Assembly: GCA_000092065.1 (NCBI GenBank)
Contig: CP000592.1
DNA from: Ostreococcus lucimarinus
Taxonomy: Eukaryota
Strand: one strand, 5' to 3'
Length of the DNA: 64,000 bases
The notes under the pieces are model-generated. The model saw only the letters and a list, made by a program, of their open reading frames with translations. It had not been told where the DNA came from and ran no database searches. The translations under genes were made by a program, and so were the position numbers. How positions within the stretch are numbered: position 1 is the stretch's first letter; every line of letters begins with the position of its first letter. Below are positions 1 to 59,034 of the stretch, piece by piece.

Positions 1-198
1 CCCTAAACCCTAAACCCTAAACCCTAAACCCTAAACCCTAAACCCTAAACCCTAAACCCTAAACCCTAAACCCTAAACCCTAAACCCTAAACCCTAAACC
101 CTAAACCCTAAACCCTAAACCCTAAACCCTAAACCCTAAACCCTAAACCCTAAACCCTAAACCCTAAACCCTAAACCGAAACCCTACACCCTACGCAT
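1..198. repeat. Telomeric repeat array (CCCTAAA)n, equivalent to TTTAGGG on the opposite strand, at the left chromosome end
   Basis: About 25 perfect tandem CCCTAAA heptamers run from base 1 to 175. Degenerate units (ccgaaaccctacaccctacgc) follow up to about 198. The C-rich strand reads 5' to 3' away from the terminus, as expected for a left-arm telomere. Confidence 0.95.
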
Positions 199-862
199 GA
201 GGGAGGGAGGCGCTTCGGGAGAAGTGCCGTAACCGACCGACTAGCTAATACTTATTACACCTAACCCTGGGTTCTCTGGGTCGTACTGAGGCATGAAAAG
301 TCACTATCATTCGCATCCTTCCTGTGCACCTTCACGACACCCGACGGCCATCACTCGTCGACCAGCACGGCACCGCAGACTTCCCCCTCGACGCTCCGGA
401 CGTCGCCGGACTCTTGCGTCAAAGTGCCTTCTTCAGTGTTCGTGTTGGACGACAAACGACCGGTCGTAGTTTGTCCTCTGTGAAAATAATGGAACCCCAA
501 GCACTCCTCTTGCGTGACACACAGTCGATTTGAGTGGAAAAGTTTTTGGTTCCTTCCTCGTTAGACATCGTTCAATGCACATTATTACAACAGGGCTTTT
601 AATCAACATTCTTAAAACAAAACTTGACACGGCGACTCTCACAGCGCCGTACCGTTACCGCCAGGAGCTCGCTGGCCCTTGTCATACAGCGGTTCATTCG
701 ATTCCATGGCGTCGGCGTTCCCGTCGCGTCGCCGACGAAGCACCACGACTGCAGCGACGACCACGCCAAATGACGCAACCTTACCGATGAACGCTGACGT
801 TCTCACGCCGCGCCTACCTGTGGCAAAGTTCTTAACATCGAAGCATCGCGTCAGTACGCGAA
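199..862. other. Subtelomeric unique sequence between the telomere and the first gene
   Basis: Non-repetitive sequence of moderate GC containing only short ORFs. It ends at the stop codon of the first convincing gene. Confidence 0.4.
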
Positions 863-2245
863 TCAACGTACGGCTGGTTTCAATTTTGACCTCACGCGCG
901 ATAGAGCGCGGTCAAGACTTTTTCCATTCTTGGATTGGACGAGATCGGTCCAACTTATTACTTCGGAGCCGAAATCGAGCGGAATACTGTGCGCGGCTCC
1001 GAATGGGCATCCCATCGCTGTGCTGTGAAGCGGAACGTTGATGACGTTTTTCATCAGCTGCGGCGCGTCTCCAAGAATGACATAAACTTCGGCAAACTGA
1101 TACGCCCAGTAAGGTTTGAAAGCCATAGTGAATTCATTCAAATCGATTAACCCATCGTTGTTGATATCAAATTTACCAAAGGCTTCTTCGCACATCTTTT
1201 GCGTGGTTTCGGTTGATACACCGTTGGTGATGAAAATTTGTGCGAGCTCGAGGAGATCAAGACTACCACTGTTGTCGAAATCGACAGATTCAAAAACACA
1301 GCGTGCTTGGACATCGTCTGGAATAGTTCTTAACGGTGCTAGCTGCGAAGTGTCCTTCCCTCGTGCATCCTGGACAACTTTCAAGTATCCAGTTTCGAAG
1401 AGAATTTTCTGAACGACTTCGGGTTGATGCTTGTATCTAACGTCATGATATAACCCATGATGGGCCTCGTGAAAGTACTGCAACATCGCACTCATCTCCA
1501 AATTCAACTCACGTTGTTCATCGCCGGTATGTTTCGATTCAGCAAATCTCGCAGCGAGAGTGTACGTCTTTCGACGAAGCCATAAATTGAAACCAATCAA
1601 CCAAACGATCAAGAAAATCATAATGGAGAAACCATAGGCCTGTCCAGCGCCAATAGTTCCTGCAATTAGCACAGCCAAGGTGTATCGGCTTTCGCGAGCG
1701 GCTTGACAAAAGTAAAGCAACACCATCCATACTCGTACCCAAGCGTAGGTTTGATGATTCGCCCAAACCGTCCACAGCCACTCCAACCGTTCCAGCTCAT
1801 AGAGCGAGTCGTCGAGAAGGGCATGAATCAAGCCAGCAACGCTCACAACCTTAACCAATGCAATGAACTGGTATGCTGGGACTGTGAGCAATCTCTGCCC
1901 ATTTACGTTGGGTGTTTGAGCGATGACCGTCATCAAATGTATTACATCGAACCCCACTGTGATCCACATAATTGGCGTCGAAACCTTTGGATTTGCGCTG
2001 CAGAACGCCACAATTGGTAGACAGACATTGATAGTGCCGCTTATGAGATGCGTTCGGATGATTATTCGAGACTTACGGAGCACCGTAAACTTTGGGTGCG
2101 GTGGAGTCGTCCAATGGAAATGCAAAATTCCCGCATTCGCCACCATGGACAGCGTGGCGAAGAGCAGTCGTTGAAGCAAGTTCAGAACATGATGGGCATG
2201 GAACAGCGGGACGTCCCACGAACTTTGACTCCATAGGTATTCCAC
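863..2245 (-). CDS. Polytopic membrane protein with histidine-box-like motifs and a C-terminal EF-hand pair; function unknown
   Basis: 460-aa ORF. Hydrophobic N-terminal two-thirds with motifs HAHH, HFHWTTPPH and HEAHHGLYH. Two canonical EF-hand loops (DFDNSGSLDLLE and DINNDGLIDLNE). GC is about 40-50 percent, far below the window average. Confidence 0.55.
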   Translation of the reverse strand: MEYLWSQSSWDVPLFHAHHVLNLLQRLLFATLSMVANAGILHFHWTTPPHPKFTVLRKSRIIIRTHLISGTINVCLPIVAFCSANPKVSTPIMWITVGFDVIHLMTVIAQTPNVNGQRLLTVPAYQFIALVKVVSVAGLIHALLDDSLYELERLEWLWTVWANHQTYAWVRVWMVLLYFCQAARESRYTLAVLIAGTIGAGQAYGFSIMIFLIVWLIGFNLWLRRKTYTLAARFAESKHTGDEQRELNLEMSAMLQYFHEAHHGLYHDVRYKHQPEVVQKILFETGYLKVVQDARGKDTSQLAPLRTIPDDVQARCVFESVDFDNSGSLDLLELAQIFITNGVSTETTQKMCEEAFGKFDINNDGLIDLNEFTMAFKPYWAYQFAEVYVILGDAPQLMKNVINVPLHSTAMGCPFGAAHSIPLDFGSEVISWTDLVQSKNGKSLDRALSRVRSKLKPAVR

Positions 2246-40927: not shown

Positions 40928-43279
40928 GAAGACGACCGCAGCGTTCGTCGCGACCGTTGGGACGAGTTTTATCGGCTCAGATCCATGATCGACGACACCG
41001 ACGAGGGCCGCGTCGCGCGAGCGATGGCGCTGAGAGCCTTCCAGGACGAGGTTCGAGCGATGTACGCTCCCGAGAACCTTCATAGCGGTGAGTCGGATAG
41101 CGACTACGAGAACGGAAACGAGAGCGTGAGCGTGGACTCGGGAATGTTTCACGAGGGAGAGTCGTCGGAGGACGAAGTCGACGACGAAGTCCCCGCCGGG
41201 CCGTTCGTGACGTACGGAGACTACCAGGATCTTCGGAGGTTGCATGAACAGTACGACCATTGTGAGGAACGGTTGCGTATTGGGGGGAATAAGGATGAAT
41301 TTCATCATCAAGTCGCGGATTGTCTGTGCGCGTTTCCGCGCCATCGACGATTGGCGACCAAGTACTTGTCGCACTCGGAACGGACAAAACCGCGCGCGAT
41401 GGATAGGCGCGAATTCTACGAGGACTATACGTGCTCCGATCTAAAGTATTTTGTCTCTGGAGAGGCTGTCATGCTACGTAACGGATTCAAGCTAGCTGCG
41501 CACACCAACGAACCGAGATACAGCGACGACGATCGCGTTCCGTTTACAGTGTATAGCATGGCGTACGACGAGGAGTCACGCACCCTCGCGGTGTGCGGGA
41601 CGGGATCACAAAATACGCGCGCGTACAACGTCATGGTATACCGTTGCGAGCAGAGCGAGACGGATACAGTGGTCGAGCGTATCGAAGAAGACATGGGTGG
41701 TTTGATGGCCCTCGCCCATAACCCTGGGCGAGTTTGGTCGAATGGGCAGCGCGAGGTTGGAGCGATGTGGAAGGACGACGACCCGGCGTGGGATTTCGTT
41801 CAACTCTGCAAGGCTAACATTGGCTTCGAATATGGTCACGATGATTATTCGGACGACGACGACTACGATCCTTTCCACGAAGACTCCATGCACGAGGTCG
41901 AACAGGCAAATTGTGTTCGATTCGGCTGGTTAGAGGACCCTAGAGAACCCGGAAAACCGCGCGAGTTGCGCCTCATTCTTTCGAGCAATGACGGGCACGT
42001 ATACGTGTGCCGTTTAGATGAAAATGACCGTGCCATCCTAGGAGCTTCACCGTACAAACTGGAGAAAGACTTCGTTATCGACAACCCAGTGCCCGTGAAC
42101 TGTGCAGTGGCATCGCCGTGTGGCAAGTTCATAGCGTTTTCGGGTGACTCACACTATGTCTGCTTGAAGGAATTCAGTCTGAGAGAGGCAGGGGACGATG
42201 GTTTAGCGGTATACTGTAGATGCAGTGAGTCAGGCAGCAGATCGGCGAGATCATATGTCGACGCCGGCGCCGAGTATAGCTTTCGCATTCCATGTGCTGA
42301 TGACAACGATGAAAGGATGAGTAGCCAGTACTTGACGTATAGCGGAGACGGTCGTTACTTGGCGGCAACGAGCGATGCATACCACTCTGTCACGGTTTGG
42401 CGCGTTGAGAACGTGATCGGTTATAGAGGCGAGGCAGTAGACGGCATTTACCCGATCGCACACTTCTACGCGTGTACATATGCGTGCTTACCGGTGACTT
42501 TTTCAATTTCGAACCCATCCATCATGATTTGGGCAGAGCGCGGGGCGAAGTTGCACGTGTTTGACTGCGCAGAGGCCGAGGAACACCGCGAGGAAATGCT
42601 CAACATAAGAGACGATTTCCTGGAAAAGTTTGGATCTGAGGCGGAGCTTCGCGAGCGTCTGCGACGCGAAAAAGCATCATTCACGAAAGAACACGACGGC
42701 CGCGATGATTATTTCTTTGGCTCTGCAGAGCCCACTAGTAAGGATTACGCCGATCCGGATGCTCTAGCAATGTGTGCGTTTGTCGACATGACGCGGAAGT
42801 CACGATTGCAAGCGGGGTGGTACAAACCAAATCTATCGCTCCGCGAACGCTACGAAGTTTGGCGCAACAGCTTGGTCGACAAGAACACTGGCAAGCACTT
42901 CTCCATTCAAACAATACGTTACGGTGTGCATAGAACGTTCATCACTGGGCTAAGCGTAAGTCAAGGCGTACCGATCCAAAAGGAAAGCGATGTGTCGATG
43001 GACGAGCATGTCTCGGATGTAATCTTGTACTCGAGTGGTACCGCCGTGCACAAGCTAGAGTTGCAAACGGGACTGCGCCGAGACATGAAAAACTTTCAAG
43101 ATTTCTCACGTTCTTTCCAGCGCGCCGTGGTAGCATTTTTGCTTTGCGTCAAACGTAGTCGCCGAAATTCGAGTGGAGATATTTGTCTCGCCGATTTGCC
43201 GAGCGATGTGATTCGCGACATCATCGCGAAGATGGCGATGCCAGTGTACAAATGGCGACAGAAACCTCACGTTCGGTGA
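40748..43279 (+). CDS. Large hypothetical protein with an acidic Asp/Ser N-terminus and an F-box-like C-terminal motif
   Basis: 843-aa ORF. The DDDDDDDDDG tract near the N-terminus is GC-rich, while the body is about 52-57 percent GC. C-terminal ICLADLPSDVIRDIIAKM. No confident domain. Confidence 0.5.
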
Positions 43280-43353
43280 GACGAAGATTGTACGTTACAG
43301 TAGCGAATCCGATCGATAAATTTGTAATGGATACGACAAGAACTAGAACAGCG

Positions 43354-44685
43354 CTATGTCGAAACTTTGTAAATGTCCTGTAACCACACGAATAAGATGC
43401 AGTAGCCCGCGAAGAGGAGATACGCGACGAGGAAGGCGCCCCCAGCGCGACGAGTGAGTCGCCAGCCATTAAAAAATAACGCGAAATAGTACATGGCTAG
43501 CACGCCAAAGAGAATACCGATGGAAGGCATGAGCTGAGATGTCTCGATGAGTACTCGGCCGCCTGGCTTTGTCGGTAAAATGATGAGCCAAGGAAGACCG
43601 AGGCCGAGCCAAATGTCAAACACGTTGCTGCCGACGGCGTTCGCTACGGCCATGTCGCCTTCGCCGGCTTTCGCCACGGCAATGGAACCGAGAGCATCTG
43701 GGATCGAGGTACCGGCGGCGACGACCAACATTCCCATGACGACTTCGGGGATCCCGATTATGCATCCCATGCGAGCGGCCCATGAAACCATAAAGTAGGA
43801 AATCACGCTGATCCATGAGATGGACGCGAGGAAGGCGACGACGAACCACTTCTCGAGATGGCGCTTTGAGCAGTCTGGAATGGTGTAATGAAATGCATAT
43901 CTCCACGGTAGGCCCAGGACGTGTAATGGAACCGCGGCCATGGAATCGGGCCATTCGAATCCTTCATCGACACCGTGAGTTTCCTCCTTCGTCGGTCTTC
44001 GAGACTGTCGACGCGTATCTGCGCGTCGCAAGACTGGCATCGCCAGGGGCGCCGGCTCGGGATTCGGTTGTTTCGCACCTTTACCACTCATCCATCGCAT
44101 AATTTTTTCGTTGTAACACATGAAACAGACATACGTGAAGTACAATATAACTGAAATCAGCCCCTCGTACCAGTACACTTCACCGTCGTGAAAGATCAGC
44201 AGAATGGTTGTAATGGCGAGGGCGTAAAACGAGCAATCGCGCGTCACCGGTCGCCAATCCAACTCGAGCGTCTGACCAGCGCAGAGCACCGTGGCACCTA
44301 TGATGAAGAGTATGTTGAAAACTGCGGAACCAACGATTGCGCTAATTCCAATCTCATTCGTAGCGTCGGGGGATATCAAGCTCATCCCAGAGGAGAAGAG
44401 TTCTGGAGCAGACGATCCCGCCGCCATGAACGTCGCGCCTGCGACGTCTTCGCTCAGGTTGAGCTTGTCGCAAATCTTTTCCAACGAAGCCACGAAGTAA
44501 TCGTCGCATACGATGGCTATGCCTAAAAACATGTATAAGATACCGATTACGTACAGCGTCCAGCCACCTTGATGAATCCAATCTGGGTACTCGTCAGAGC
44601 ATCCGCCGCTCGAGGCGAGCCGGCGCGAATGCGCCATTGGCGACGACATTACGCGATCAACCCCGTAGAGCAGTTGATAAGACAC
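43354..44685 (-). CDS. Cation/calcium exchanger of the CaCA superfamily (NCKX/CCX-like)
   Basis: Alpha-1 (GATFMAAGSSAPELFSS) and alpha-2 (GTSIPDALGSIAVAKAG) repeat motifs. About 11 TM helices. Confidence 0.8.
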   Translation of the reverse strand: MSYQLLYGVDRVMSSPMAHSRRLASSGGCSDEYPDWIHQGGWTLYVIGILYMFLGIAIVCDDYFVASLEKICDKLNLSEDVAGATFMAAGSSAPELFSSGMSLISPDATNEIGISAIVGSAVFNILFIIGATVLCAGQTLELDWRPVTRDCSFYALAITTILLIFHDGEVYWYEGLISVILYFTYVCFMCYNEKIMRWMSGKGAKQPNPEPAPLAMPVLRRADTRRQSRRPTKEETHGVDEGFEWPDSMAAVPLHVLGLPWRYAFHYTIPDCSKRHLEKWFVVAFLASISWISVISYFMVSWAARMGCIIGIPEVVMGMLVVAAGTSIPDALGSIAVAKAGEGDMAVANAVGSNVFDIWLGLGLPWLIILPTKPGGRVLIETSQLMPSIGILFGVLAMYYFALFFNGWRLTRRAGGAFLVAYLLFAGYCILFVWLQDIYKVST

Positions 44686-45728: not shown

Positions 45729-46332
45729 GAAACGTGCGCGACGCGTGTGCGACGCGAATCGCGGCGTGAACGCGCGGCGGCGACCCGAGAGCTTCGGGAC
45801 GACGTTTCAGAGAAGCGTGACGTCTGAGGGTTCGCGGTCGGTGCTGAAGCTCTGACGCGCGACGCGACGGTGCGAAGCGCGCGCGGGGGCGAACGATACG
45901 TGCGCGAGAAATTCTCGTGGCGAACGCGCGCGAAACACGCGCCGTACGACGCGAGACGGGCGCGTGAGAATCGTAAAGTTCGGAACTTTTTGGGGCCGGA
46001 TAAAGGCTGAGCCTGAGAAAGCGCACGCGACGACTTGCAACGGGGCGCGTGCATTCGCATACGAGATTTGGACACAAAAGCGGTCGTGAACGTAAATGCG
46101 AACGGAGATTGAAACGAGATACGAACGCTTGAAGGCGTTGGTGGTCGTGAATACGCGACATTTGGACGCCGGTCGAGGTGGGGAGGCGCGCGAGGGCGCC
46201 GAGCCGAACGACGTGACGCAGTTGAGCGCGGGTGGAGGCCAGGTTTAGGCGAACTATCGAAGGCTGAGTCGTATTAGTTAGAAGGTTTAGGAACGCCTGG
46301 GGCTGATCGCGGGAATCGCTGACGCTACCGTC

Positions 46333-47703
46333 ATGACGGAGACCCTGAGCCGAACGGCGACGCCGAGACCTTCGACGCCGAGCGTGTTGTCGCTGCATCA
46401 ACTCGATGATCTTGACAGCGACAAAAGTTCGGCGAAAGTCGGGGCACTGTCACGCACGTCGAAGTTTCAACTCCCGAAGATCGGATACTTGAAACACGAA
46501 GCCGTGCAAGTGTTCAAGCGCGTGCGTTCGTTTGGGTCTTTTCAAGATCTCATCGTTCCCGACATTGATGGGTACGCTTCGAGCGTGTCCGACGACGAAG
46601 ACGATGACAACGACTCTTGGGGTCTTTCTGGTTACGTCACCGACGCGAGTGAATTCGATCGCATTTTGATCTCCGCGTGGGAAGATCGATTCGCCGGCGG
46701 CTTGTTTCGGTACGACGTCACCGCGGTCAGCACAAAGGTTATAGACGGCAAAAAGAAGTACGTCGCGCAGTTCAACATCGGTCGAGCGACGAATAAACGC
46801 CCGACAGAGTTTTCTGTGGATAAGGTTTGCCAAGACTTTGACGCGAACAAGTTCAACTTCACGAAAGCGGATCTCAAAGAGGTGCTCTTTTCTTTCACCA
46901 AGCTCGCTGGTGAGGCGGACGAAAACGTCAGTCGCTCTGTGTTTGAACCGTCAGCAGCCGTGGGTGAGAGCCCGACCGTGGTTCTGATCAATGTTTCGCC
47001 GATCGAGTACGGACACGTGCTGCTTTGTCCTCGCGTGACAGACATGCTTCCGCAGCAAATCAGCCCAGAAAATTTGCTTCCGGCGCTGTACATGGCGGCT
47101 GAATCGCGAAATCCGTACTTCCGCGTAGGATACAACTCCCTCGGAGCGTACGCGACGATCAATCATCTTCATTTTCAGGCGTACTATCTCATGGAAGCGT
47201 TTCCCATCGAGCGTGCGAACACGGTCGAAATCTTCCCGGGTACGCATGGCGACTGCACCGTATACCGCGTGAACGGTTACCCGGTGCGCTGCTTGTGCTT
47301 TGAAGTCGGCGATTCCTTCGAAGAGCTCGCCTCGCTCGTGGGTGGATGCGCCGTGAAGTTGCAAGGGGCGAACATTCCGTTTAACATTTTGATCGCCGAT
47401 CACGGCGCGAGAGTGTTTTTGATCCCTCAGGTCTTTTCGATTCGCATCGCGAACAACAAAATTCCAGAGCACGTCATTCACACGGGCGTAAATCCGGCGG
47501 TGTTTGAAATATCTGGACATCTTCTCTACAAACAAGAATCGGACTACGATCAGTGCACCGAGACTAGTGCAGAGGAGCTTTTGGCGTGCGCATCGTTGAC
47601 TGAAGAGCAGTTCGTTAAGCTCATCGACCACACAGTGGGCGATAAAAAATCAAACGAAGACGCCGTCGCGGCGTTGGCTTCTATTGTTGAGTCTGAGTTG
47701 TGA
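46333..47703 (+). CDS. VTC2: GDP-L-galactose phosphorylase (VTC2/VTC5-type), ascorbate biosynthesis
   Basis: ILISAWEDRFAGGLFRYDVTAVSTKVIDGKKKYVAQFN parallels Arabidopsis VTC2. HIT-like INHLHFQAYYL motif. Confidence 0.8.
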   Translation: MTETLSRTATPRPSTPSVLSLHQLDDLDSDKSSAKVGALSRTSKFQLPKIGYLKHEAVQVFKRVRSFGSFQDLIVPDIDGYASSVSDDEDDDNDSWGLSGYVTDASEFDRILISAWEDRFAGGLFRYDVTAVSTKVIDGKKKYVAQFNIGRATNKRPTEFSVDKVCQDFDANKFNFTKADLKEVLFSFTKLAGEADENVSRSVFEPSAAVGESPTVVLINVSPIEYGHVLLCPRVTDMLPQQISPENLLPALYMAAESRNPYFRVGYNSLGAYATINHLHFQAYYLMEAFPIERANTVEIFPGTHGDCTVYRVNGYPVRCLCFEVGDSFEELASLVGGCAVKLQGANIPFNILIADHGARVFLIPQVFSIRIANNKIPEHVIHTGVNPAVFEISGHLLYKQESDYDQCTETSAEELLACASLTEEQFVKLIDHTVGDKKSNEDAVAALASIVESEL

Positions 47704-47924
47704 AGACGCAGACGTTACTTTGATTGCTCGGGCGAGTTGAACGTTCTCACGCGTCCAGCCGTATATCACCACCATCTGATTCTATTTTTTCATTGACAAC
47801 ATTGCACGTAGGCGCGTTGCCGCGGATTCCAGCGCGCTCGTCAGACGCCTTTTTGACGCACAGTTTTTTCGTTTGGTAGCGGATTAAACGTGTTTTGCTA
47901 TATCATATATCATATATCAGTTAT

Positions 47925-49268
47925 CTACTTGCGGTGCGCCGCGCCGATGGCGTCTTGCACACTCTTGAAACCGTCGCGCGCCAAGCACTCCTCGAGTTCT
48001 CGCTTGATTCTAGGTATCAAAGGCGGACCTTCGAAGGCAAACGCGGTGTACAACTGCACCAACGACGCGCCCGCGCGAATCTTTGCGTACGCGTCTTCGC
48101 CGCTGGCGATGCCGCCGCATCCCACCAAGGTGATTTTGCCGCCCGTGAGCTTGTACAGGTCGTGCAACACCTTAGTGCTCGGCTCCATGAGCGGTTTACC
48201 GCTCAGACCGCCCGCTTCGTCGCCGTGCGCGTGCGCTTTGATGGCGTCCGGTCGCGCGATGGTGGTGTTGCTCACGATGACTCCGTCGACCTTTTCGCTC
48301 TTCACCACGCTCGCGATATCCCTCAACGCGGCGTCGGTGAGATCGGGGGCGATTTTCACCAACACCGGCGTCTTCGCGGTGCCCGGATTTTTGTCGCGCG
48401 CGTCCAAAACCTTGCGCAGCAACCCGCTCAAATGCTTGCGACCTTGCAAGTTTCTCAAACCCGGCGTGTTCGGCGAGGAAATGTTCACGACGATGTAATC
48501 GCCGAATTCCCCGATATTCTCCACCCCCAAGACGTAATCATCCGCCGCGTTGTCTTCAGGAGTGAGCTTATTCTTCCCGAGATTTACGCCGAGCACCCCG
48601 CGCGGCTCCGCCGTCGCGTCGTCGCCCTCGGCGGCGACGGCGTCGCGCCGCCTCGCCAATCGCGTCCTCGCGCTCTCGTGTCCCTGGCTGTTGAACCCAT
48701 ACCGATTGATCACCGCCCCGTGTTCGCGCAGGCGGAACGCGCGCGGTTTCGGATTCCCCGGCTGCGGCTTCGGCGTCACGCTCCCGATCTCCACGAACCC
48801 GAATCCCACCCTCAGCAACGCCTCGAACGCCCTCGCGTCCTTATCGAATCCCGCCGCCAGACCGATCGGGTTCGAAAACGTCGTCCCGAGCGCCTCCACG
48901 CGCAGCGCCTCCCCGTCTCGCCGCCTTCGTCTCGGTCCCAGTCCCAGCGCGAGCGCCGCCACCGCGACGTCGTGCGCCGTCTCCGCGTCGAGCGCTCGCA
49001 GCGCCGGCGTCGCCGCGCCGTACGCCGCGAACTCCGCGTCCTCCGCCCAGTCTCCGTCCGCGAATCGCACCGCCGCCATCGCGCCGCAGACGCCGAGCGC
49101 GCCGGCCGCGAGCGTCGAGATTCCGCCTCGGCGCGCGCGCGGCGCCGTCGCGCAATCATCCGCCGCGCGCGACGCGAACGCGCGCGCGCCGTCGCTCGCG
49201 CCGCGATGGCGAACGGCGCGCAGCGCGATTTCGACGCCGCGACGCGCGGCGCGCCGACCGGCGTCCAT
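47925..49268 (-). CDS. Dihydroorotate dehydrogenase (quinone), class 2
   Basis: NPIGLAAGFDKDARAFEALLRVGFGFVEIGSVTPKPQPGNPKPRAFRL and the C-terminal FMN-binding blocks (VIVSNTT, LVGCGGIASGEDAYAKIRAGASLVQLYTAF). Confidence 0.85.
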   Translation of the reverse strand: MDAGRRAARRGVEIALRAVRHRGASDGARAFASRAADDCATAPRARRGGISTLAAGALGVCGAMAAVRFADGDWAEDAEFAAYGAATPALRALDAETAHDVAVAALALGLGPRRRRRDGEALRVEALGTTFSNPIGLAAGFDKDARAFEALLRVGFGFVEIGSVTPKPQPGNPKPRAFRLREHGAVINRYGFNSQGHESARTRLARRRDAVAAEGDDATAEPRGVLGVNLGKNKLTPEDNAADDYVLGVENIGEFGDYIVVNISSPNTPGLRNLQGRKHLSGLLRKVLDARDKNPGTAKTPVLVKIAPDLTDAALRDIASVVKSEKVDGVIVSNTTIARPDAIKAHAHGDEAGGLSGKPLMEPSTKVLHDLYKLTGGKITLVGCGGIASGEDAYAKIRAGASLVQLYTAFAFEGPPLIPRIKRELEECLARDGFKSVQDAIGAAHRK

Positions 49269-53708: not shown

Positions 53709-54167
53709 TCACTTCTTCGGACGCAAAGCGACCTCGAGCTCGGCGCCGTCCGGGCCGTCGACGACGCACTGACACGATAACCGCCAACTCTCCTTCAACT
53801 TTCCAGCGCTGAGCTTTCGCGCCTCGGGGTCGGTGCGCTCGCTCAGAAATTCGCCGCCTCGGAGAACGTCGACGCCGCACGTGCCGCAGTTGCCCATGCC
53901 GCCGCAGTTGAGCAATTTGTTCACGCCCGCGTACAGCTCGCGCTTCGCGTCCAACGCGACGGTTCGCAGCACCTCCGGTTTCTCCACCGTCGTCGTCACC
54001 GGCGCCGATTTACCGTCCTCGGAGATGAACGTCACCTTTACGGCCGCGCGCGGCGTCGGCGCGCGCGCGGTGGAGGACGCGCGCGCGCGCGTTCGGCGGT
54101 GCCGGAAAGCGTCGCAGTTTGAGCGGGGACACGCGCGCGCGACGCGCGCGGCGGTGAAGCCGGGCAT
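53709..54167 (-). CDS. 2Fe-2S ferredoxin-like protein with a transit peptide
   Basis: Cys cluster NCGGMGNCGTCGV (C-x5-C-x2-C) plus distal LSCQCV, resembling plant-type ferredoxin ligands. Confidence 0.5.
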   Translation of the reverse strand: MPGFTAARVARACPRSNCDAFRHRRTRARASSTARAPTPRAAVKVTFISEDGKSAPVTTTVEKPEVLRTVALDAKRELYAGVNKLLNCGGMGNCGTCGVDVLRGGEFLSERTDPEARKLSAGKLKESWRLSCQCVVDGPDGAELEVALRPKK

Positions 54168-54312
54168 GAGGGACGCGCGAGAGAGAGTCTTCGCGTTCGC
54201 GCGTCCGCGAGCGCGGCGTCGAGCGCGAGCGGGAGCGCGCGCTGAAGAGTGCGGTGGGAAAGCGGCGCGCGCGGTTTGCTGTTACAAGGCGAAGATTTCG
54301 ACTCGCGATCGA

Positions 54313-55434
54313 TCACGTGCGACCGCCGAATCGACGGTCGCGCTTGGCGTAGGCGTATAACGCCCGGCGCAGTTCTGCTTCGCCGAACTCGGGCCAAAAC
54401 ATTTGCGCAAAGTACAGTTCGGTGTACGCGAGGTCCCAGAGGAGAAAGTTGCTCAGGCGCTGCTCGCCGCTCGTGCGAATCAATAAATCCGGCGCCTGCG
54501 CGAAATCGATCTCGTTCGTCGCCGCGCGTGCGTCGTATGTCGATAAATGCGCGCTCAGTGCCGCTTCGTCGATGTCCTCGGCGCGCATCTCCCCGTCCGC
54601 AACCTTTTGCGCGAGCGTCTTGGCGGCTTGCACGATGTCCTGCCGACCGCCGTAACTCAACGCCACCACCAGACGCAACGAATCGTTATCCTTCGTCGCC
54701 TCCATCGCTCGCGTCACCGCACTGCGCACGCCCTCGTTCACTTTACTCAAATCCCCGATGACTTCCACGCGCACGCCTTCCTTGACGAGCAACGGCAACT
54801 CCTCTCGCATCGCCGTCTCCACGAGCGCCATGAGCTCTTCAATTTCCGCTTGGTTCCGCCCCCAGTTCTCCTGACTGAACGCAAACACCGTCAGTGTGCT
54901 TATGCCCCAAGCCACGCAGCATTTCACCACCCCCCGCAGCGCGTTCACGCCGCGTTCGTGTCCAATCGTCCGCGGCAATCGCCGCCGTTCCGCCCACCGC
55001 GAGTTCCCATCCATGATGATCGCCACGTGTCTCGGCACCTGATCCCTCGCCAAGTCCCGCAGCGCGCTCGGTTTACTGTCCCATCTCGACACCGCCCCTC
55101 GCGGCAGGTTCAGAATCCCGGGAAATCCGAGCAAACCGGGGAATCGTCCTCCCGGCGTCGCGTTCGCCGTCGTCGCCGTCCCGTTCGCCGCGCGTCGGCC
55201 CTCGACGCCGTCGTCCTCGTCGCTCGACGCCTCATCCGCGGTCGACGCCGCGATCGCATCGTTCGCGGGCGCGCCGTCGGCGTCGTCTCGCCACGACGAC
55301 GCCCGCGCGCGCGAAGAGAAGGCGCGAAACGAATTCGTTGGATGAATTCGCGGTCGATCGCACGGTCGCCGCGCCGCGCGACGCGCGCGCGGCGCGGTTC
55401 GCGGCGCGCTCGACGCGCTCGCGCGCGCGCGCAT
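54313..55434 (-). CDS. cis-Prenyltransferase (undecaprenyl / dehydrodolichyl diphosphate synthase family)
   Basis: PRHVAIIMDGNSRWAERRRLPRTIGHERG...TVFAFSQENWGR...IRTSGEQRLSNFLLWDLAYTELYF, the UPPS signature blocks. Confidence 0.85.
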   Translation of the reverse strand: MRARASASSAPRTAPRARRAARRPCDRPRIHPTNSFRAFSSRARASSWRDDADGAPANDAIAASTADEASSDEDDGVEGRRAANGTATTANATPGGRFPGLLGFPGILNLPRGAVSRWDSKPSALRDLARDQVPRHVAIIMDGNSRWAERRRLPRTIGHERGVNALRGVVKCCVAWGISTLTVFAFSQENWGRNQAEIEELMALVETAMREELPLLVKEGVRVEVIGDLSKVNEGVRSAVTRAMEATKDNDSLRLVVALSYGGRQDIVQAAKTLAQKVADGEMRAEDIDEAALSAHLSTYDARAATNEIDFAQAPDLLIRTSGEQRLSNFLLWDLAYTELYFAQMFWPEFGEAELRRALYAYAKRDRRFGGRT

Positions 55435-55590: not shown

Positions 55591-57126
55591 TCACGCGCGA
55601 TCGAATAGGATTAAGTGCTCGGTGCGAGCCTGGTTGTACACCCTGCCCTCCTCCGTGGTGGTCGTGAGCTTCATCGTGCAGCCGGCGACTTCGCGCAGGG
55701 CGAATTTGGCGGCGGCGGCGACGATGGAGGCGCGAGTGTCGATGTTTGCGCCGTCGCCGACCATGATCGCGGCGCGACCGCGAGGGGTGAGCGAATCGGC
55801 GACGACGGCGAGCCATTCCTCTTGTTCGCGCTGCCAGACGTCCTTGAAGGCGTAAGGATCGGAACGGAGCGCGCGCCGAGAACCTATTTCGCCCTCCGTC
55901 CAACCGGCGGGCCAATTTCTGTCTCCCGGAACGACGGTGTTGACGTACGAGGACGTCGGACCGGATCGCGCCGAGAACGACGCGGATGATGGCACGACCG
56001 CACCGCTCCCAGCGCGCACCTTGCGCGCGAACGACAAGTAATCGTACACCGCCGGGTACGGACACGACGTCAACACGGCGTCGACTTTGTCCTCCGCCGA
56101 AAGCTTGAATTTCCTGACGTCGACGTTGTGAATCGACGCGGGCGGCGCGGGCGCACCCGCATGTTTCGCACATTCCTCTCGAAACTGCTCCAAACGATTC
56201 GCGTATTCCTCGACAGTTTTAAGAAACGTCTCCGCATTGACGCGCGAGGCGTCGTCGCCGCCGCCGCCGCGTTTTCCCTTACTCTTACCCTTATGCCGAC
56301 GCTTGTTTTGAGACTTTTGCGTCCTTTGCAGCGCGACTGACATGCAAAACCACAACCCCTCGGCGACGCGCGGCGCACCGACGAACGCATCGCTCGCCAA
56401 GTATTCCCTCAACGCGTCCCGAACCGCCCGCCAAGATCTCGGGACGTCGCTCGCGTCCTCATCGTTCGCTCCGTCTTTCTCCTCCCTCGTCCCCGCTCGA
56501 TCCGTCACCGTCCGCGCGCTTTCGAGCATCACTTCCACCTCCTCCTCGCTCGCGCGCCAATTTCTATTCGCGCTCACGAAGCACGCCAACGGCGACACGT
56601 CCGCGCCGACGGCGCGCCACCCGAGCGTCTGCGCGCACACCAGCGTCGTCCCTCCACCCGCGAACGGATCCAGCACGCTCCGCGTCTCCGTCGCCTCGAA
56701 GCACTCTCGCATTATCAAATCGCACGCCGCGGGCTGCATGCCCGCCAGAATCTCCCCGAATCCGTGCGTGCACCGCGCGAACCCGCTCGGCGCGCTCGCG
56801 TAGCCGTGCGTCCACTGCACGCGCATCGCCCGCAGGCACGACTCCGCGAGCGCGGCGTCGCCGAACGCGCGCTCGGTGAAGACATCGCTCGGCGTCGACG
56901 CGCGCTCGAGGTACTCGAGCTCGCGCTCGCGCGCGGCGTCGCTCGAGCGCGCGGCGGCGGTTCGAGTCCCGACGCCGCGTCGCGCGCGTCGCGCCGCGCT
57001 CGAGCGACGCGACGCGTCGCGCGCGTCGCGACGCGTCGAGATCACCGCGCGCGAGGTCGCGCGCGCGACGCGCGCCATCGGGCGCGTCGCGAGGCGGCGC
57101 GAAGTGCCGACCGCCGGCGCCGTCAC
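55591..57126 (-). CDS. Prokaryote-like SAM-dependent amino-methyltransferase homolog (N6-adenine/N4-cytosine MTase family) with motif I before a degenerate motif IV
   Basis: HGFGEILAGMQPAACDLIMRECFEATETRSVLDPFAGGGTTLVCAQTLGWRAVGADVSP resembles the HPT-KP...VLDPFaGSGTT...lGR..iGiE block. Downstream, KVDAVLTSCPYPAVYDY...WLAVVADSLTPRGRAAIMVGDG resembles the DPPY...RVLKpgG block, with the catalytic tetrapeptide changed to SCPY. Confidence 0.55.
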   Translation of the reverse strand: MTAPAVGTSRRLATRPMARVARATSRAVISTRRDARDASRRSSAARRARRGVGTRTAAARSSDAARERELEYLERASTPSDVFTERAFGDAALAESCLRAMRVQWTHGYASAPSGFARCTHGFGEILAGMQPAACDLIMRECFEATETRSVLDPFAGGGTTLVCAQTLGWRAVGADVSPLACFVSANRNWRASEEEVEVMLESARTVTDRAGTREEKDGANDEDASDVPRSWRAVRDALREYLASDAFVGAPRVAEGLWFCMSVALQRTQKSQNKRRHKGKSKGKRGGGGDDASRVNAETFLKTVEEYANRLEQFREECAKHAGAPAPPASIHNVDVRKFKLSAEDKVDAVLTSCPYPAVYDYLSFARKVRAGSGAVVPSSASFSARSGPTSSYVNTVVPGDRNWPAGWTEGEIGSRRALRSDPYAFKDVWQREQEEWLAVVADSLTPRGRAAIMVGDGANIDTRASIVAAAAKFALREVAGCTMKLTTTTEEGRVYNQARTEHLILFDRA

Positions 57127-57159
57127 TTTTCGTCACTTTTCCGCGCGGTTTTCGGCGGC

Positions 57160-58119
57160 ATGCGCCGTCGCGGCGCGTCGACGGCGGCGCGCGGCGCCGC
57201 GGTCGGGTTCATCGGAATGGGCATCATGGGCGCCGCGATGTCGCGCGCGCTCGCGCGCGCGGGCGCGCGCGTGGTGGCGTGGAATCGGTCGCGGGACAAG
57301 GCGGAGGCGACGCGCGCGGCGTTCGAGCGCGACGACGCCGAGGCGATGCGCGCGAACGGAGGGGCGATCGACGTCGTGGACGCCGTGGCGGACGTCGCGG
57401 CGCGGTGCGAGGTGACGTTCGCGATGCTGGCGGATCCGCGAGCGGCGCTGGAGGTGGCGAGGGCGTACGCGGCGGCGAGCGGGACGCGGGACGGAGACGC
57501 GAGGACGTACGTCGATTGTTCCACCGTCGACGGCGCGTGCGGAGAGGCGACGCGAGAGATTTTGGGAGAAAACGTGCGGTTCTTAGCCGCGCCGGTGTCT
57601 GGGGGGTGGCGCGACGCGGCGAAAGGGGAGCTTTTGTTCCTGGGAGGCGGCGACGCGCGGGCGTACGAAGACGGCGCGCGGTTCATGGACGTCATGGGCG
57701 CGAAGCGTTGGCTCGTCGGTGACAGCCCGACGCACGCGGCGAGGGCGAAATTGATGTTGCAAATCATGATGGGGAACGTCGTCGGCGCGCTCGGGGAGAT
57801 GCACGCGCTGAGCGAACGCGCGGGGTTGGACTCGAACGCTATTTTGGAAATGCTGTCGCACAGCGCGATGGGATCGCCGCTCACGACGGCCAAGGGTAAG
57901 CTCATGGCCGATCGGAACTTTGCCCCGAATTTCCAGGTGTATCTACAACAGAAAGACCTACGTCTAGCGTTGAACTTGGCGGATGAGCTTGATTTCGCCG
58001 CGCCGATCACGGCGGCGACGAACGCGCAATATCTCAAGGCGAAATCGCTCGGGCACGCCAACAGCGATTTCGCCGCCGTCGCCGCGGCGTACACGGGCGA
58101 AAAGCCCGATTCGAGTTGA
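57160..58119 (+). CDS. NAD(P)-dependent beta-hydroxyacid dehydrogenase (3-hydroxyisobutyrate dehydrogenase / GLYR family)
   Basis: Rossmann GFIGMGIMGAAMSRAL, and the NAD-binding domain 2 signature of this family (GDSPTHAARAKLMLQIMMG). Confidence 0.75.
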   Translation: MRRRGASTAARGAAVGFIGMGIMGAAMSRALARAGARVVAWNRSRDKAEATRAAFERDDAEAMRANGGAIDVVDAVADVAARCEVTFAMLADPRAALEVARAYAAASGTRDGDARTYVDCSTVDGACGEATREILGENVRFLAAPVSGGWRDAAKGELLFLGGGDARAYEDGARFMDVMGAKRWLVGDSPTHAARAKLMLQIMMGNVVGALGEMHALSERAGLDSNAILEMLSHSAMGSPLTTAKGKLMADRNFAPNFQVYLQQKDLRLALNLADELDFAAPITAATNAQYLKAKSLGHANSDFAAVAAAYTGEKPDSS

Positions 58120-58212: not shown

Positions 58213-59034
58213 TTGACGCTCGTCGCTCGTCGCTCGCCGCTCGCCGCCGCCGCCTCAGACGACGCCGCGTCCGGCATGCCGCCCACCGCGCGCGAGTGGC
58301 GCCACTTCACCGCATCCAGCGACGGCACGCGCATCGAATGTCTCATCACCGATTTCCCGCGCGCCGAGGACGAGAAGCGCGCGCGCGAGGACTGGTTTAT
58401 TCTCGTCCACGCCCATCCAAAGCTCGGTGGTTGTCGACAGATGATGCTCCCGCTCGCGCGTTCTCTCGCCGCTCGCGGGCACGGCTCGGTGTGCGTCGCG
58501 CTGCGCGGTACTTCTGAGTCCCTGGGCTCGAGCACGTGGCGAGGGAGCGAGGCGGAGGGAGAGGACGTGCTCGCGGCGTGCGCGCTCGCGGCGAACGGGA
58601 CGCTCGCGGGCGCGAACGCGAACGCGCGATGTCATTTGGTCGGATATTCGTACGGTGGGACGATATGCGGGTACGCGCTGAAGAGGAAACATCCGAACGT
58701 GGCGTCGTACATCGCGATCGGGTACCCGCGAGGGTCGTACGGGTGTGGATTGTACGGAGTCGGGGCGAAGTGGTTGATGCGAGACCACTTCGACGCGCTC
58801 GCGGAGAGCGAGACGCCGAAATTGTTCATTCATCCCGAACGCGACGAGTTTACGACGGTGAAGACGATGGAAACGCTCGTAGAGGAGAAGCTCGAGCGTG
58901 GAGTGAGGGAACTGCGAGTGTTAAAGGGGGCGGATCACTTTTCCGCCGCGACGGACGCGCGCGTCGTCGAGCAGACGGTGGATTGGATCTTAGAGTTTGT
59001 GGCGCGTTGTGCGCGACGGGAGGATTCTTCTTAG
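58213..59034 (+). CDS. Alpha/beta-hydrolase-fold protein
   Basis: Nucleophile elbow GYSYGG. Secondary-structure pattern typical of small alpha/beta hydrolases. A distal His is present. Confidence 0.5.
   Translation: MTLVARRSPLAAAASDDAASGMPPTAREWRHFTASSDGTRIECLITDFPRAEDEKRAREDWFILVHAHPKLGGCRQMMLPLARSLAARGHGSVCVALRGTSESLGSSTWRGSEAEGEDVLAACALAANGTLAGANANARCHLVGYSYGGTICGYALKRKHPNVASYIAIGYPRGSYGCGLYGVGAKWLMRDHFDALAESETPKLFIHPERDEFTTVKTMETLVEEKLERGVRELRVLKGADHFSAATDARVVEQTVDWILEFVARCARREDSS

Follow-up and report, generated by a model that had tools for sequence, protein, structure and literature searches.

The methyltransferase locus

We analysed a 64,000-nucleotide stretch of nuclear DNA from Ostreococcus lucimarinus CCE9901 (contig CP000592.1; the whole stretch is called the window), which carries an open reading frame (ORF) for a putative amino-methyltransferase on its minus strand at 55591..57126. 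Read from a GTG, the ORF encodes 511 residues, and these coordinates include the stop codon. Its closest homolog, P0001, is 99% identical to the ORF product, and the 90%-identity cluster of P0001 holds XP_001420740.1 / ABO99033.1 / A4S5A3, annotated as 'predicted protein'. Because a nuclear gene should start at ATG and Met17 at 57078 is the first ATG, the coding sequence is most likely 55591..57078 (-), a single intronless exon of 495 residues; a 495-residue product from Met17 was also called by metagenome gene callers. The NCBI RefSeq/UniProt model (XP_001420740.1/A4S5A3) has 411 residues and begins at Met101, so that it drops both the presequence and the segment LEYLERASTPS...LRAMRVQW, which is conserved in all algal homologs (window 56812-57078, minus strand). 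Since there is no ATG between Met17 and the conserved domain, the 53-residue N-terminal extension must be translated. Residues are numbered throughout in the 511-residue (GTG) frame unless the 495-residue (Met17) frame is named.

The gene stands head-to-head with a dehydrogenase gene whose ATG lies at 57160. A preliminary description of this DNA, made from the sequence alone, gave the gap between the two starts as 33 bp, which is correct from the GTG at 57126; from the likely ATG at 57078 the gap is 81 bp. The two genes are not functionally linked. The neighbours in the window encode a beta-hydroxyacid dehydrogenase, a cis-prenyltransferase, an alpha/beta hydrolase and a 2Fe-2S ferredoxin, all housekeeping genes, and no restriction enzyme gene was found near the methyltransferase within the window, as the preliminary description had also noted. 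The gene order is identical at four orthologous algal loci: isoamylase, hydrolase, dehydrogenase head-to-head with the methyltransferase, cis-prenyltransferase, an unknown gene and a light-harvesting complex gene. The features of the gene, from its N-terminal to its C-terminal end, and those flanking it are as follows.

56920..57078 (-): presequence-like extension, residues 17-69, rich in Arg, Ala, Ser and Thr; composition kept among orthologs, sequence poorly conserved; absent in bacterial homologs
56812..56919 (-): conserved N-terminal strand and helix of the catalytic domain, LEYLERASTPS...LRAMRVQW, residues 70-105 (alignment, model)
56698..56769 (-): motif X-like block THGFGEILAGMQP..., residues 120-143; equivalent to the H-P-x-x-x-P block ahead of motif I in PF01555 enzymes
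56629..56679 (-): strand 1 and motif I, the S-adenosylmethionine (AdoMet)-binding loop, SVLDPFAGGGTTLVCAQ; D153, P154, F155, G157, G159 and T160 are invariant in the family
56584..56616 (-): strand 2 and motif II, RAVGADVSPLA; G174 and D176 are invariant
56167..56547 (-): four-helix insertion domain between strands 2 and 3, residues 194-320; family-specific, also in the myxobacterial and haloviral relatives
56251..56319 (-): flexible loop rich in Lys, Arg and Gly, QKSQNKRRHKGKSKGKRGGGGDD, inside the insertion domain, pLDDT about 63 (alignment, model)
56107..56139 (-): strand 3 and motif III, ASIHNVDVRKF; D336 is near-invariant
56002..56085 (-): strand 4, motif IV and family signature, VDAVLTSCPYPAVYDYLSFARKVRAGSG; family consensus TSPPYPGVYDY
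56062..56064 (-): codon TGT for Cys355, at the position of the first proline in SPPY; ortholog P0004 has CCG here, which differs in two nucleotides
55855..55893 (-): conserved loop GEIGSRRALRSDP between motif IV and helix D; G415 is invariant
55744..55836 (-): helix D and strand 5, WQREQEEWLAVVADSLTPRGRAAIMVGDGAN; aligns with the 'RvLkpgG' block of beta-class methyltransferases
55603..55629 (-): C-terminal strand 7, ARTEHLILF; E503 is near-invariant
57079..57159 (no strand): 81-bp divergent intergenic region from the methyltransferase ATG to the dehydrogenase ATG, a presumed bidirectional promoter (ATG positions)
57160..58119 (+): beta-hydroxyacid/6-phosphogluconate-type dehydrogenase (NAD_binding_2 and NAD_binding_11), head-to-head; syntenic in all orthologous loci
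54313..55434 (-): cis-prenyltransferase (Prenyltransf, E 7e-78), downstream neighbour; syntenic in all orthologs and not a restriction enzyme

Family assignment

Peptide blocks of the ORF lie at residues 120-181 (THGFGEILAGMQP...SVLDPFAGGGTTLVCAQ...RAVGADVSP), 270-292 (QKSQNKRRHKGKSKGKRGGGGDD), 348-358 (VDAVLTSCPYP) and 448-458 (RGRAAIMVGDG). The similarity to N6_N4 DNA methylases that had been claimed for the protein was borne out by Pfam, by PDB sequences and by PADLOC. In Pfam, N6_N4_Mtase (PF01555) matched with 27.5 bits (E 3.7e-6), a thin margin over the cut-off of 26.7, and the match is confined to motif I (residues 150-179, profile positions 184-213 of 221). UPF0020 (PF01170) scored 17.1 bits, under its cut-off of 22.3, so the proposed Pfam check of the class returned only the first of the two families. 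Many homologs passed PF01170 (P0245 with 38.9 and P0273 with 38.4 bits), only over the first ~50 profile positions, and Pfam gave no match to a THUMP domain in the window protein. NCBIfam searches and single-sequence PDB searches matched motif I alone, in both beta-class DNA methylases and archaeal Trm11. The NCBIfam matches to isoprenyl transferase, CcrM and DUF1156 were weak, limited to motif I or spurious, and were discarded.

An exhaustive HMMER search returned 927 representatives of the family at E<=1e-3, 216 at E<=1e-10 and 35 at E<=1e-30. We built a family profile (A2) from 64 members and ran it against PDB sequences. The profile matched beta-class TTHA0409 (2zie) with E 2.4e-21 in three blocks of circularly permuted order (profile 252-280 to chain 23-52, 327-359 to 70-102, and 67-132 to 216-282), and archaeal Trm11 (5e71) with E 2e-13 in collinear blocks; its syntaxin matches were set aside as coiled-coil noise from the helical insert. 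The PADLOC Type II methyltransferase model PDLC03306 is collinear with the window protein from motif I to motif IV (E 5e-9; residues 131-353 in the 495-residue frame, or 147-369 in the 511-residue frame), and PDLC03364, a REBASE-derived Type II model of PADLOC, covers a full-length myxobacterial member (E 4e-31). Judged by these alignments, the window protein is a member of the (D/N/S)PPY amino-methyltransferase superfamily, related to the N6_N4 DNA methylases. UniProt gives family proteins the rule-based name 'site-specific DNA-methyltransferase (cytosine-N(4)-specific)'. The PROSITE N4_MTASE signature, which we take to be [LIVMF]-T-S-P-P-[FY], did not match the window protein (LTSCPY) as a regular expression, whereas the consensus VLTSPPY would match.

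Two homologs have unusual architectures. P0322 (859 residues, prokaryote-like) carries the family N-terminal module (49-285) and then a complete canonical PF01555 domain (266-519, E 2.9e-41). In P0233 (678 residues), a VTT/DedA-type membrane domain (PF09335, E 4.7e-16) precedes the methyltransferase module, through either a real fusion or a merged gene model.

Predicted structure and motif order

The AlphaFold2 model of residues 80-511, computed from a 64-sequence alignment, reached a pLDDT of 91 and a pTM of 0.92. Its N-terminus is modelled as one strand and one helix, the strand order is 1-2-(four helices)-3-4-5-6-7, and the motifs run I-II-insert-III-IV-...-VIII. Strand 1 leads into the DPFAGGGT loop, strand 2 comprises RAVGAD, strand 3 SIHN, and strand 4 ends in S354-C355-P356-Y357. 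Between strands 2 and 3, 127 residues form four long helices (residues 194-320), and the low-confidence basic loop QKSQNKRRHKGKSKGKRGGGGDD is placed between the third and the fourth of them. After strand 4, a loop region of ~70 residues bears the invariant YDY and GEIG motifs and is followed by helix D and strands 5, 6 and 7.

Motif I (residues 153-160) therefore precedes motif IV (354-357), as the preliminary description had it; the swapped blocks of the 2zie alignment and the topology of the model agree on this. Its further description of the arrangement as 'alpha-like or permuted' applies relative to the beta-class enzymes, while the order itself is the canonical Rossmann one and collinear with Trm11 and Trm14. 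As modelled, the fold is an unpermuted class-I Rossmann methyltransferase with canonical strand order, and no new permutation is present. The Lys/Gly-rich insert reported between the two halves of the protein does exist as a basic loop, and the large insert that contains it sits between motifs II and III. We consider the four-helix insertion domain a probable substrate-recognition module. The basic character of the QKSQNKRRHKGKSKGKRGGGGDD loop is kept in eukaryotic homologs, whereas bacterial homologs have a different, shorter segment there.

The top structural matches of the model were Trm11, Trm14 and TrmN. Pandoravirus dulcis S4VQ82 was a full-length structural match in BFVD (E 1e-10, TM 0.55).

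Catalytic tetrapeptide and selection

Both the alignment and the codons confirmed that the catalytic tetrapeptide of the window protein is altered to SCPY, but this is not a trait of the family. Among 170 family sequences, motif IV reads SPPY in 154, SCPY in nine, GPPY in five and SCVY in two, and SCPY and SCVY are confined to an Ostreococcus-like group. The codons are TCG TGT CCG TAC in O. lucimarinus, TCG CCG CCG TAT in P0004 and TCG TGC GTC TAC in P0011, and the change from Pro to Cys at residue 355 needs two nucleotide changes. In the family alignment, the AdoMet-loop residues D153, P154, F155, G157, G159 and T160 are invariant, and S354 and Y357 are near-invariant.

The ratio of nonsynonymous to synonymous substitution (dN/dS; Nei-Gojobori) was 0.16-0.29 for every ortholog pair over 414 aligned codons, SCPY/SCPY pairs included, with 0.16-0.25 in SCPY/SCVY pairs against 0.24-0.29 in pairs with SPPY; dS was 0.8-2.3, near saturation, so these ratios are approximate. 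They show that the gene is under purifying selection and still maintained, and the strictly kept gene order of its orthologs likewise speaks for a functional gene. In the (D/N/S)PPY enzymes, according to the passages of Iyer, Zhang and Aravind that treat the active site, the first residue of the motif holds the amino group together with the backbone carbonyl that lies between the prolines, and the base is stacked against the aromatic residue (2016, BioEssays 38:27, PMC4738411). In the archaeal rRNA N4,N4-dimethylcytidine (m4,2C) synthase, D205A was inactive and P206A, which replaces the first proline of DPPR, was still active (PMC11551388). Since position 355 contributes backbone rather than a side chain, the Pro-to-Cys change would be tolerated there, and we regard SCPY as a tolerated lineage-specific variant rather than a sign of lost catalysis. 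The suggestion that catalysis may be lost is thus not favoured, considering the dN/dS ratios, the invariant AdoMet-binding residues and the P206A precedent.

P0004 and P0005 are SPPY orthologs with 66-68% identity. They stand among orthologs with SCPY or SCVY, and O. lucimarinus is less close to some of those than to P0004 and P0005. This implies either that SPPY was regained by a two-nucleotide reversion or that Pro changed to Cys independently more than once, and the tree did not decide between the two. In our literature searches, we found no earlier report of a natural SPPY/SCPY/SCVY series of this kind among strict orthologs. GPPY, with Gly for the catalytic Ser, occurs in P0201, P0202, P0225, P0226 and P0243, three of which are PPR fusions; these members may be inactive or differently specific paralogs.

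Prokaryotic and viral relatives

Scanning the GTDB species genomes gave prokaryotic relatives in 351 of them. The 80 best of these show 24-31% identity; with few exceptions they are full-length (trimmed query residues ~39-431) and come from metagenome-assembled genomes of Myxococcota/Polyangiaceae. In a neighbour-joining tree, the eukaryotic sequences form one clade beside the myxobacterial ones with a bootstrap of 64, and the Mamiellophyceae are grouped with a bootstrap of 99. A bacterial origin, one of the two sources named in the preliminary description, is supported by these full-length relatives and the single eukaryotic clade, and the alignments and the tree are best explained by acquisition of the family, long ago, from Myxococcota-type bacteria by an ancestor of plastid-bearing eukaryotes.

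Neighbour clustering revealed no recurrent endonuclease within 4 kb in the 80 myxobacterial loci, and no mobile-element context was seen in the algal loci or the 80 myxobacterial loci examined. The recurrent myxobacterial neighbours, a Ser/Thr kinase-ATPase, an SRPBCC-like protein and a PlsB-like acyltransferase, represent ordinary chromosomal synteny. In seven of the 80 loci, an RlmL-like THUMP and UPF0020 methyltransferase (DPMCGSGT...NPPYG) lies directly upstream on the same strand (e.g. L094 4464-5639). Several metagenome-assembled genomes with a myxobacterial-type gene are titled 'uncultured Enterobacterales' or 'Klebsiella pneumoniae' (L070-L074, L077, L080, L083, L103 and others), and they look mislabelled because the gene is otherwise restricted to Myxococcota.

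A viral origin, the other source named, was not supported. The IMG/VR scan gave 63 loci, each of which matched in the generic motif X/I/II segment and nowhere else; none is a full-length member, and a prasinovirus or other viral source of the gene was rejected on this basis. S4VQ82 of P. dulcis, one of five predicted DNA methyltransferases of a virus whose DNA carries N4-methylcytosine (4mC; PMC7253447), is kept as a distant relative, not as a source. Haloarcula virus HJTV-2 gp44 shares the architecture, with motif I at residue 54 and LLVTSPPY at 272, and adjoins an Eco29kI endonuclease gene (PF09517, E 8e-56); among the loci examined, this haloviral relative alone has an adjacent endonuclease. 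In HJTV-2 (MZ334513.1 32073-34324; L150 2971-5222), gp44 overlaps the 72-residue Trm112-like zinc-ribbon protein gene gp45 by 4 bp, and the Eco29kI-type gp46 is on the opposite strand. The Trm112 match of gp45 was just under the threshold (21.5 against 22 bits). A Trm112-like partner of a DNA restriction-modification methylase would be unusual, and echoes the structural similarity to Trm11-Trm112. When 722 small ORFs beside the myxobacterial genes were screened with gp45 for a Trm112 partner, none matched.

Domain fusions and N-terminal extensions in eukaryotic homologs

Of the ten longest homologs, eight have PPR arrays at the N-terminus (PF13041/PF01535, E 1e-24 to 1e-97), and the module behind the array aligns over the entire query. 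Two of 30 additional representatives have the same fusion, giving ten in total, and the named ones belong to the dinoflagellates Effrenium, Symbiodinium and Durusdinium; CAJ1401635.1 and CAJ1334936.1 are examples of the dinoflagellate fusions. Four other homologs, which form a separate clade, have an N-terminal CCCH finger (C-x8-C-x5-C-x3-H). PPR and CCCH domains are binders of single-stranded RNA. That fusion to an RNA-binding domain occurred twice independently is the strongest functional clue we have, and it suggests an RNA substrate.

The named eukaryotic members are all from plastid-bearing algae, namely prasinophytes, xanthophytes/ochrophytes, chlorarachniophytes and dinoflagellates (Ostreococcus, Prasinococcus, Cymbomonas, Tribonema, Phaeothamnion, Norrisiella and Amorphochlora besides the dinoflagellates). 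Several of them are transcriptome-derived, so these homologs are expressed. The Ostreococcus-type N-termini are basic and hydroxylated, with 8-13 R+K against 0-3 D+E in the first 40 residues; the O. lucimarinus protein has 13 R+K against 2 D+E there. Chlorarachniophyte homologs start with a hydrophobic signal-peptide-like segment (Kyte-Doolittle 2.2-2.9) and continue with a basic stretch, which fits a bipartite plastid signal, and the N-terminus of Tribonema gayanum, '...SSMTGA' followed by 'FQHA' at the presumptive boundary, resembles the ochrophyte ASAF motif. Such extensions are absent from bacterial homologs. Based on this composition, we infer that the N-terminal extension is an organelle transit peptide.

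In Ostreococcus and Micromonas, nuclear N6-methyladenine (6mA) marks ApT sites that lie downstream of transcription start sites, and it has been attributed to the AMT1 pathway (PMC12695648). Because AMT1 accounts for nuclear 6mA, no unexplained nuclear mark calls for this methyltransferase. The role in DNA 6mA or 4mC that had been envisaged for the protein seems unlikely, because of the ten PPR and four CCCH fusions, the organelle-like N-termini and this attribution to AMT1.

Comparison with known systems

Two eukaryotic Ser-type amino-methyltransferase clades, often fused to PPR, were proposed to make N4-methylcytosine in RNA in the sections of Iyer et al. on these clades (PMC4738411). The family and its predicted RNA role were thus already described computationally in 2016, and the window protein, judged by its sequence, adds a member whose function is predicted only. 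Clade 2, in the terms of those sections, resembles the present family in its Ser motif, its PPR fusions, its sporadic occurrence in microbial eukaryotes and its relatives in myxobacteria and archaeal dsDNA viruses; correspondingly, we found S354, PPR arrays in homologs, Myxococcota relatives and HJTV-2 gp44. The paper calls Clade 2 'circularly permuted', whereas the present model has the canonical I-II-III-IV order and is permuted only relative to PF01555 and the beta-class, and the Ostreococcus member differs from the clade as described in having SCPY and no PPR. Clade 5 is described there as unpermuted, Ser-type, found in photosynthetic protists and sometimes fused to PPR, so that its topology and phyletic pattern fit the family; its prokaryotic counterparts, EcoRII-like restriction-modification systems, differ from the relatives found here. 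The results match Clade 2, a label that stays tentative, with Clade 5 as the alternative.

Beta-class N6_N4 DNA methyltransferases (PF01555; TTHA0409/2zie, M.RsrI, M.MboIIA and bdelloid N4CMT 8s9m) run IV...VIII, target recognition domain, X and I, whereas the family has I-II before III-IV-V. Both share the motif X/I block H..YPA...LDPFxGxGT..A...GR..xGxD, a TSPPY motif IV and a following 'W...L.pgG' block. The 127-residue helical insert stands in place of the beta-class target recognition domain, and ~30 residues of the window protein match PF01555. The beta-class tetrapeptide is (D/N/S)PP(Y/F), to which the SPPY of the family conforms and the S-C-P-Y of the window protein does not. The N2-methylguanosine (m2G) methyltransferases Trm11, Trm14, TrmN and RlmL (PF01170) have the same collinear motif order, act on RNA and are the closest solved structures. 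The family differs from the Trm11/RlmL group in lacking THUMP, in having Ser rather than Asp/Asn in motif IV and in the helical insert between strands 2 and 3.

The archaeal 16S rRNA m4,2C synthase TK2045 (8VYD; PMC11551388) is a Rossmann enzyme that methylates RNA cytosine at N4, and the first proline of its strand-4 (D)PPx is dispensable. It matched the family only marginally (E 0.039) and differs in its DPPR in place of SPPY, its other N-terminal domain and its action on assembled ribosomes. HJTV-2 gp44 (annotated 'N4-cytosine Mtase') and PDLC03364/03322/03306 share with the family motif I, an insert of ~200 residues and LLVTSPPY, in a full-length collinear alignment; in contrast with the window protein, gp44 sits in a restriction-modification context with Eco29kI adjacent, DNA is its presumed substrate, its identity is ~23% and it has no presequence. 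PDB 8urk/9c3s was considered as an RNA N4-methylcytidine enzyme and rejected, as it is M.BceJIV, a DNA N6-adenine enzyme. Literature searches on N6_N4_Mtase or N4-methylcytosine with PPR or chloroplast gave nothing relevant beyond Iyer et al. 2016. In a 2026 review, dinoflagellate PPR proteins with a putative methyltransferase domain were noted as unproven (PMC12787238).

Proposed function and alternatives

Taking the fusions, the N-termini and the catalytic motif by analogy, we propose an RNA amino-methyltransferase that is encoded in the nucleus, targeted to an organelle, most likely the plastid, and probably specific for N4 of cytosine; in our judgement this proposal has an even chance of being right. 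After import, the methyltransferase would bind organellar RNA through its helical and basic insertion, while RNA binding in dinoflagellates would be provided by the fused PPR array and in another clade by the CCCH finger. The target base would be flipped into the pocket and stacked on Tyr357, its amino group held by Ser354 and by the backbone carbonyl after residue 355. Methyl transfer from AdoMet would follow, and the Ser-type motif suggests N4-methylcytidine as the product. More tentatively, and with the odds rather against it, the family could be a class of RNA N4-cytosine methyltransferases of organelles that is so far uncharacterised and has no relation to RsmH/METTL15/CMAL. Plastid-bearing eukaryotes would have taken it from Myxococcota-like bacteria, and in Ostreococcus it would work with a non-canonical SCPY/SCVY active site.

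Several points weigh against this proposal. The Ostreococcus protein itself has neither PPR nor CCCH, and the RNA assignment is carried over from paralogous or orthologous fusions. Targeting was judged by composition, and the K/R-rich loop inside the protein might serve for nuclear localisation instead. The Ser of motif IV correlates with N4-cytosine specificity and is no proof of it, and the loss of both prolines (SCVY) in two lineages may mean altered chemistry. The nearest prokaryotic and viral relatives (gp44 beside Eco29kI, the Type II methyltransferase models and S4VQ82) look like DNA enzymes. The monophyly of the eukaryotic sequences has moderate support, and its bootstrap falls from 64 to 49 when the CCCH clade is added. 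The literature searches found no experimental work on any family member.

An organellar DNA methyltransferase that kept the prokaryotic/viral DNA specificity and places 4mC or 6mA on plastid or mitochondrial DNA is an unlikely explanation, though the foremost of the alternatives to an RNA enzyme. It would account for the shared architecture of gp44 beside its endonuclease gene, for the full-length matches of PADLOC Type II models to members, for the full-length structural match to S4VQ82, a predicted DNA N4-cytosine methyltransferase, and for a family profile nearer to 2zie (E 2e-21) than to Trm11 (E 2e-13), and the presequence-like N-terminus fits an organelle location here too. Set against it are the PPR and CCCH fusions, which point to single-stranded RNA, and the lack of a restriction partner or mobile-element context in the algae or the 80 myxobacterial loci; to our knowledge, there is also no established 4mC or 6mA in the plastid DNA of these algae. 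The same kinship with DNA amino-methyltransferases, together with the resemblance of the basic loop KRRHKGKSKGKR to a nuclear localisation signal, would suit an orphan enzyme that sets 6mA or 4mC in chromatin, for which bdelloid N4CMT (8s9m, among the PDB sequence matches), a horizontally acquired N4-cytosine DNA methyltransferase in a eukaryotic nucleus, is a precedent. We hold this nuclear role to be very improbable, considering that 6mA at ApT in Ostreococcus and Micromonas is attributed to AMT1, that the N-terminal extension is organelle-like with bipartite signals in homologs of secondary-plastid algae, that the eukaryotic family is restricted to plastid-bearing lineages and that homologs are fused to RNA-binding domains.

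Two further alternatives concern the reaction rather than the compartment. In the Ostreococcus lineage the protein could be a pseudo-enzyme that binds AdoMet and RNA as a chaperone, assembly factor or reader and methylates nothing, which we rate slightly below the organellar DNA enzyme in probability. The two-nucleotide substitution at the catalytic tetrapeptide is rare (11 of 170 sequences), one lineage lost both prolines, and METTL14, as portrayed in the superfamily account of PMC4738411, is an inactive yet conserved member of the same superfamily with disrupted active-site motifs. By contrast, Ser354 for catalysis and Tyr357 for stacking are both retained, the AdoMet loop does not vary, dN/dS of SCPY/SCVY pairs (0.16-0.25) is not above that of SPPY pairs (0.24-0.29), the first proline is dispensable in the rRNA m4,2C synthase (PMC11551388), and the proline position supplies a backbone carbonyl and not a side chain in the active-site description of PMC4738411. 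Nor do we favour another acceptor, whether guanine N2 or adenine N6 in tRNA or rRNA as in Trm11/RlmL or protein glutamine as in HemK, whose probability seems marginally lower again. That the top structural matches are the m2G tRNA enzymes Trm11, Trm14 and TrmN, that many homologs match PF01170/UPF0020, that an RlmL-like THUMP methyltransferase lies directly upstream in seven myxobacterial loci and that a borderline Trm112-like ORF follows the haloviral relative all speak for it. The protein has no THUMP domain, however, and its motif IV has Ser, not Asp/Asn, which is typical of N4-cytosine enzymes; moreover, the family [LV]TSPPY presumably fits the PROSITE N4_MTASE pattern.

If the RNA prediction is true, N4-methylcytidine, or another amino-methylated base, would arise in organellar RNA by two routes of independent evolutionary origin, the family being the second. 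In dinoflagellates the PPR arrays would then select the targets, which could potentially be predicted with the PPR code. An active SCPY/SCVY enzyme would further mean that the 'PP' of (D/N/S)PPY is dispensable in vivo, and the catalytic centre might have gained a redox-sensitive cysteine. Ostreococcus is genetically tractable and holds a single intronless copy, so a prediction open since 2016 is testable there, and the SPPY/SCPY/SCVY ortholog series is a natural experiment on how much of the tetrapeptide is needed. The 'site-specific DNA-methyltransferase' names in UniProt could mislead searches for eukaryotic 4mC writers.

Other features of the window

The genes for the 2Fe-2S ferredoxin-like protein and the cis-prenyltransferase (53709-55434, minus strand) and for the alpha/beta hydrolase (58213-59034, plus strand) belong to a block that is syntenic across Ostreococcus-like genomes. 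The cis-prenyltransferase has an N-terminal extension of ~140 residues rich in Arg, Ala and Ser, and both it and the ferredoxin-like protein are presequence-like at the N-terminus. The GC fraction is 0.49-0.54 at window positions 1-2000, 42001-44000 and 46001-48000, against a background of 0.60-0.69.

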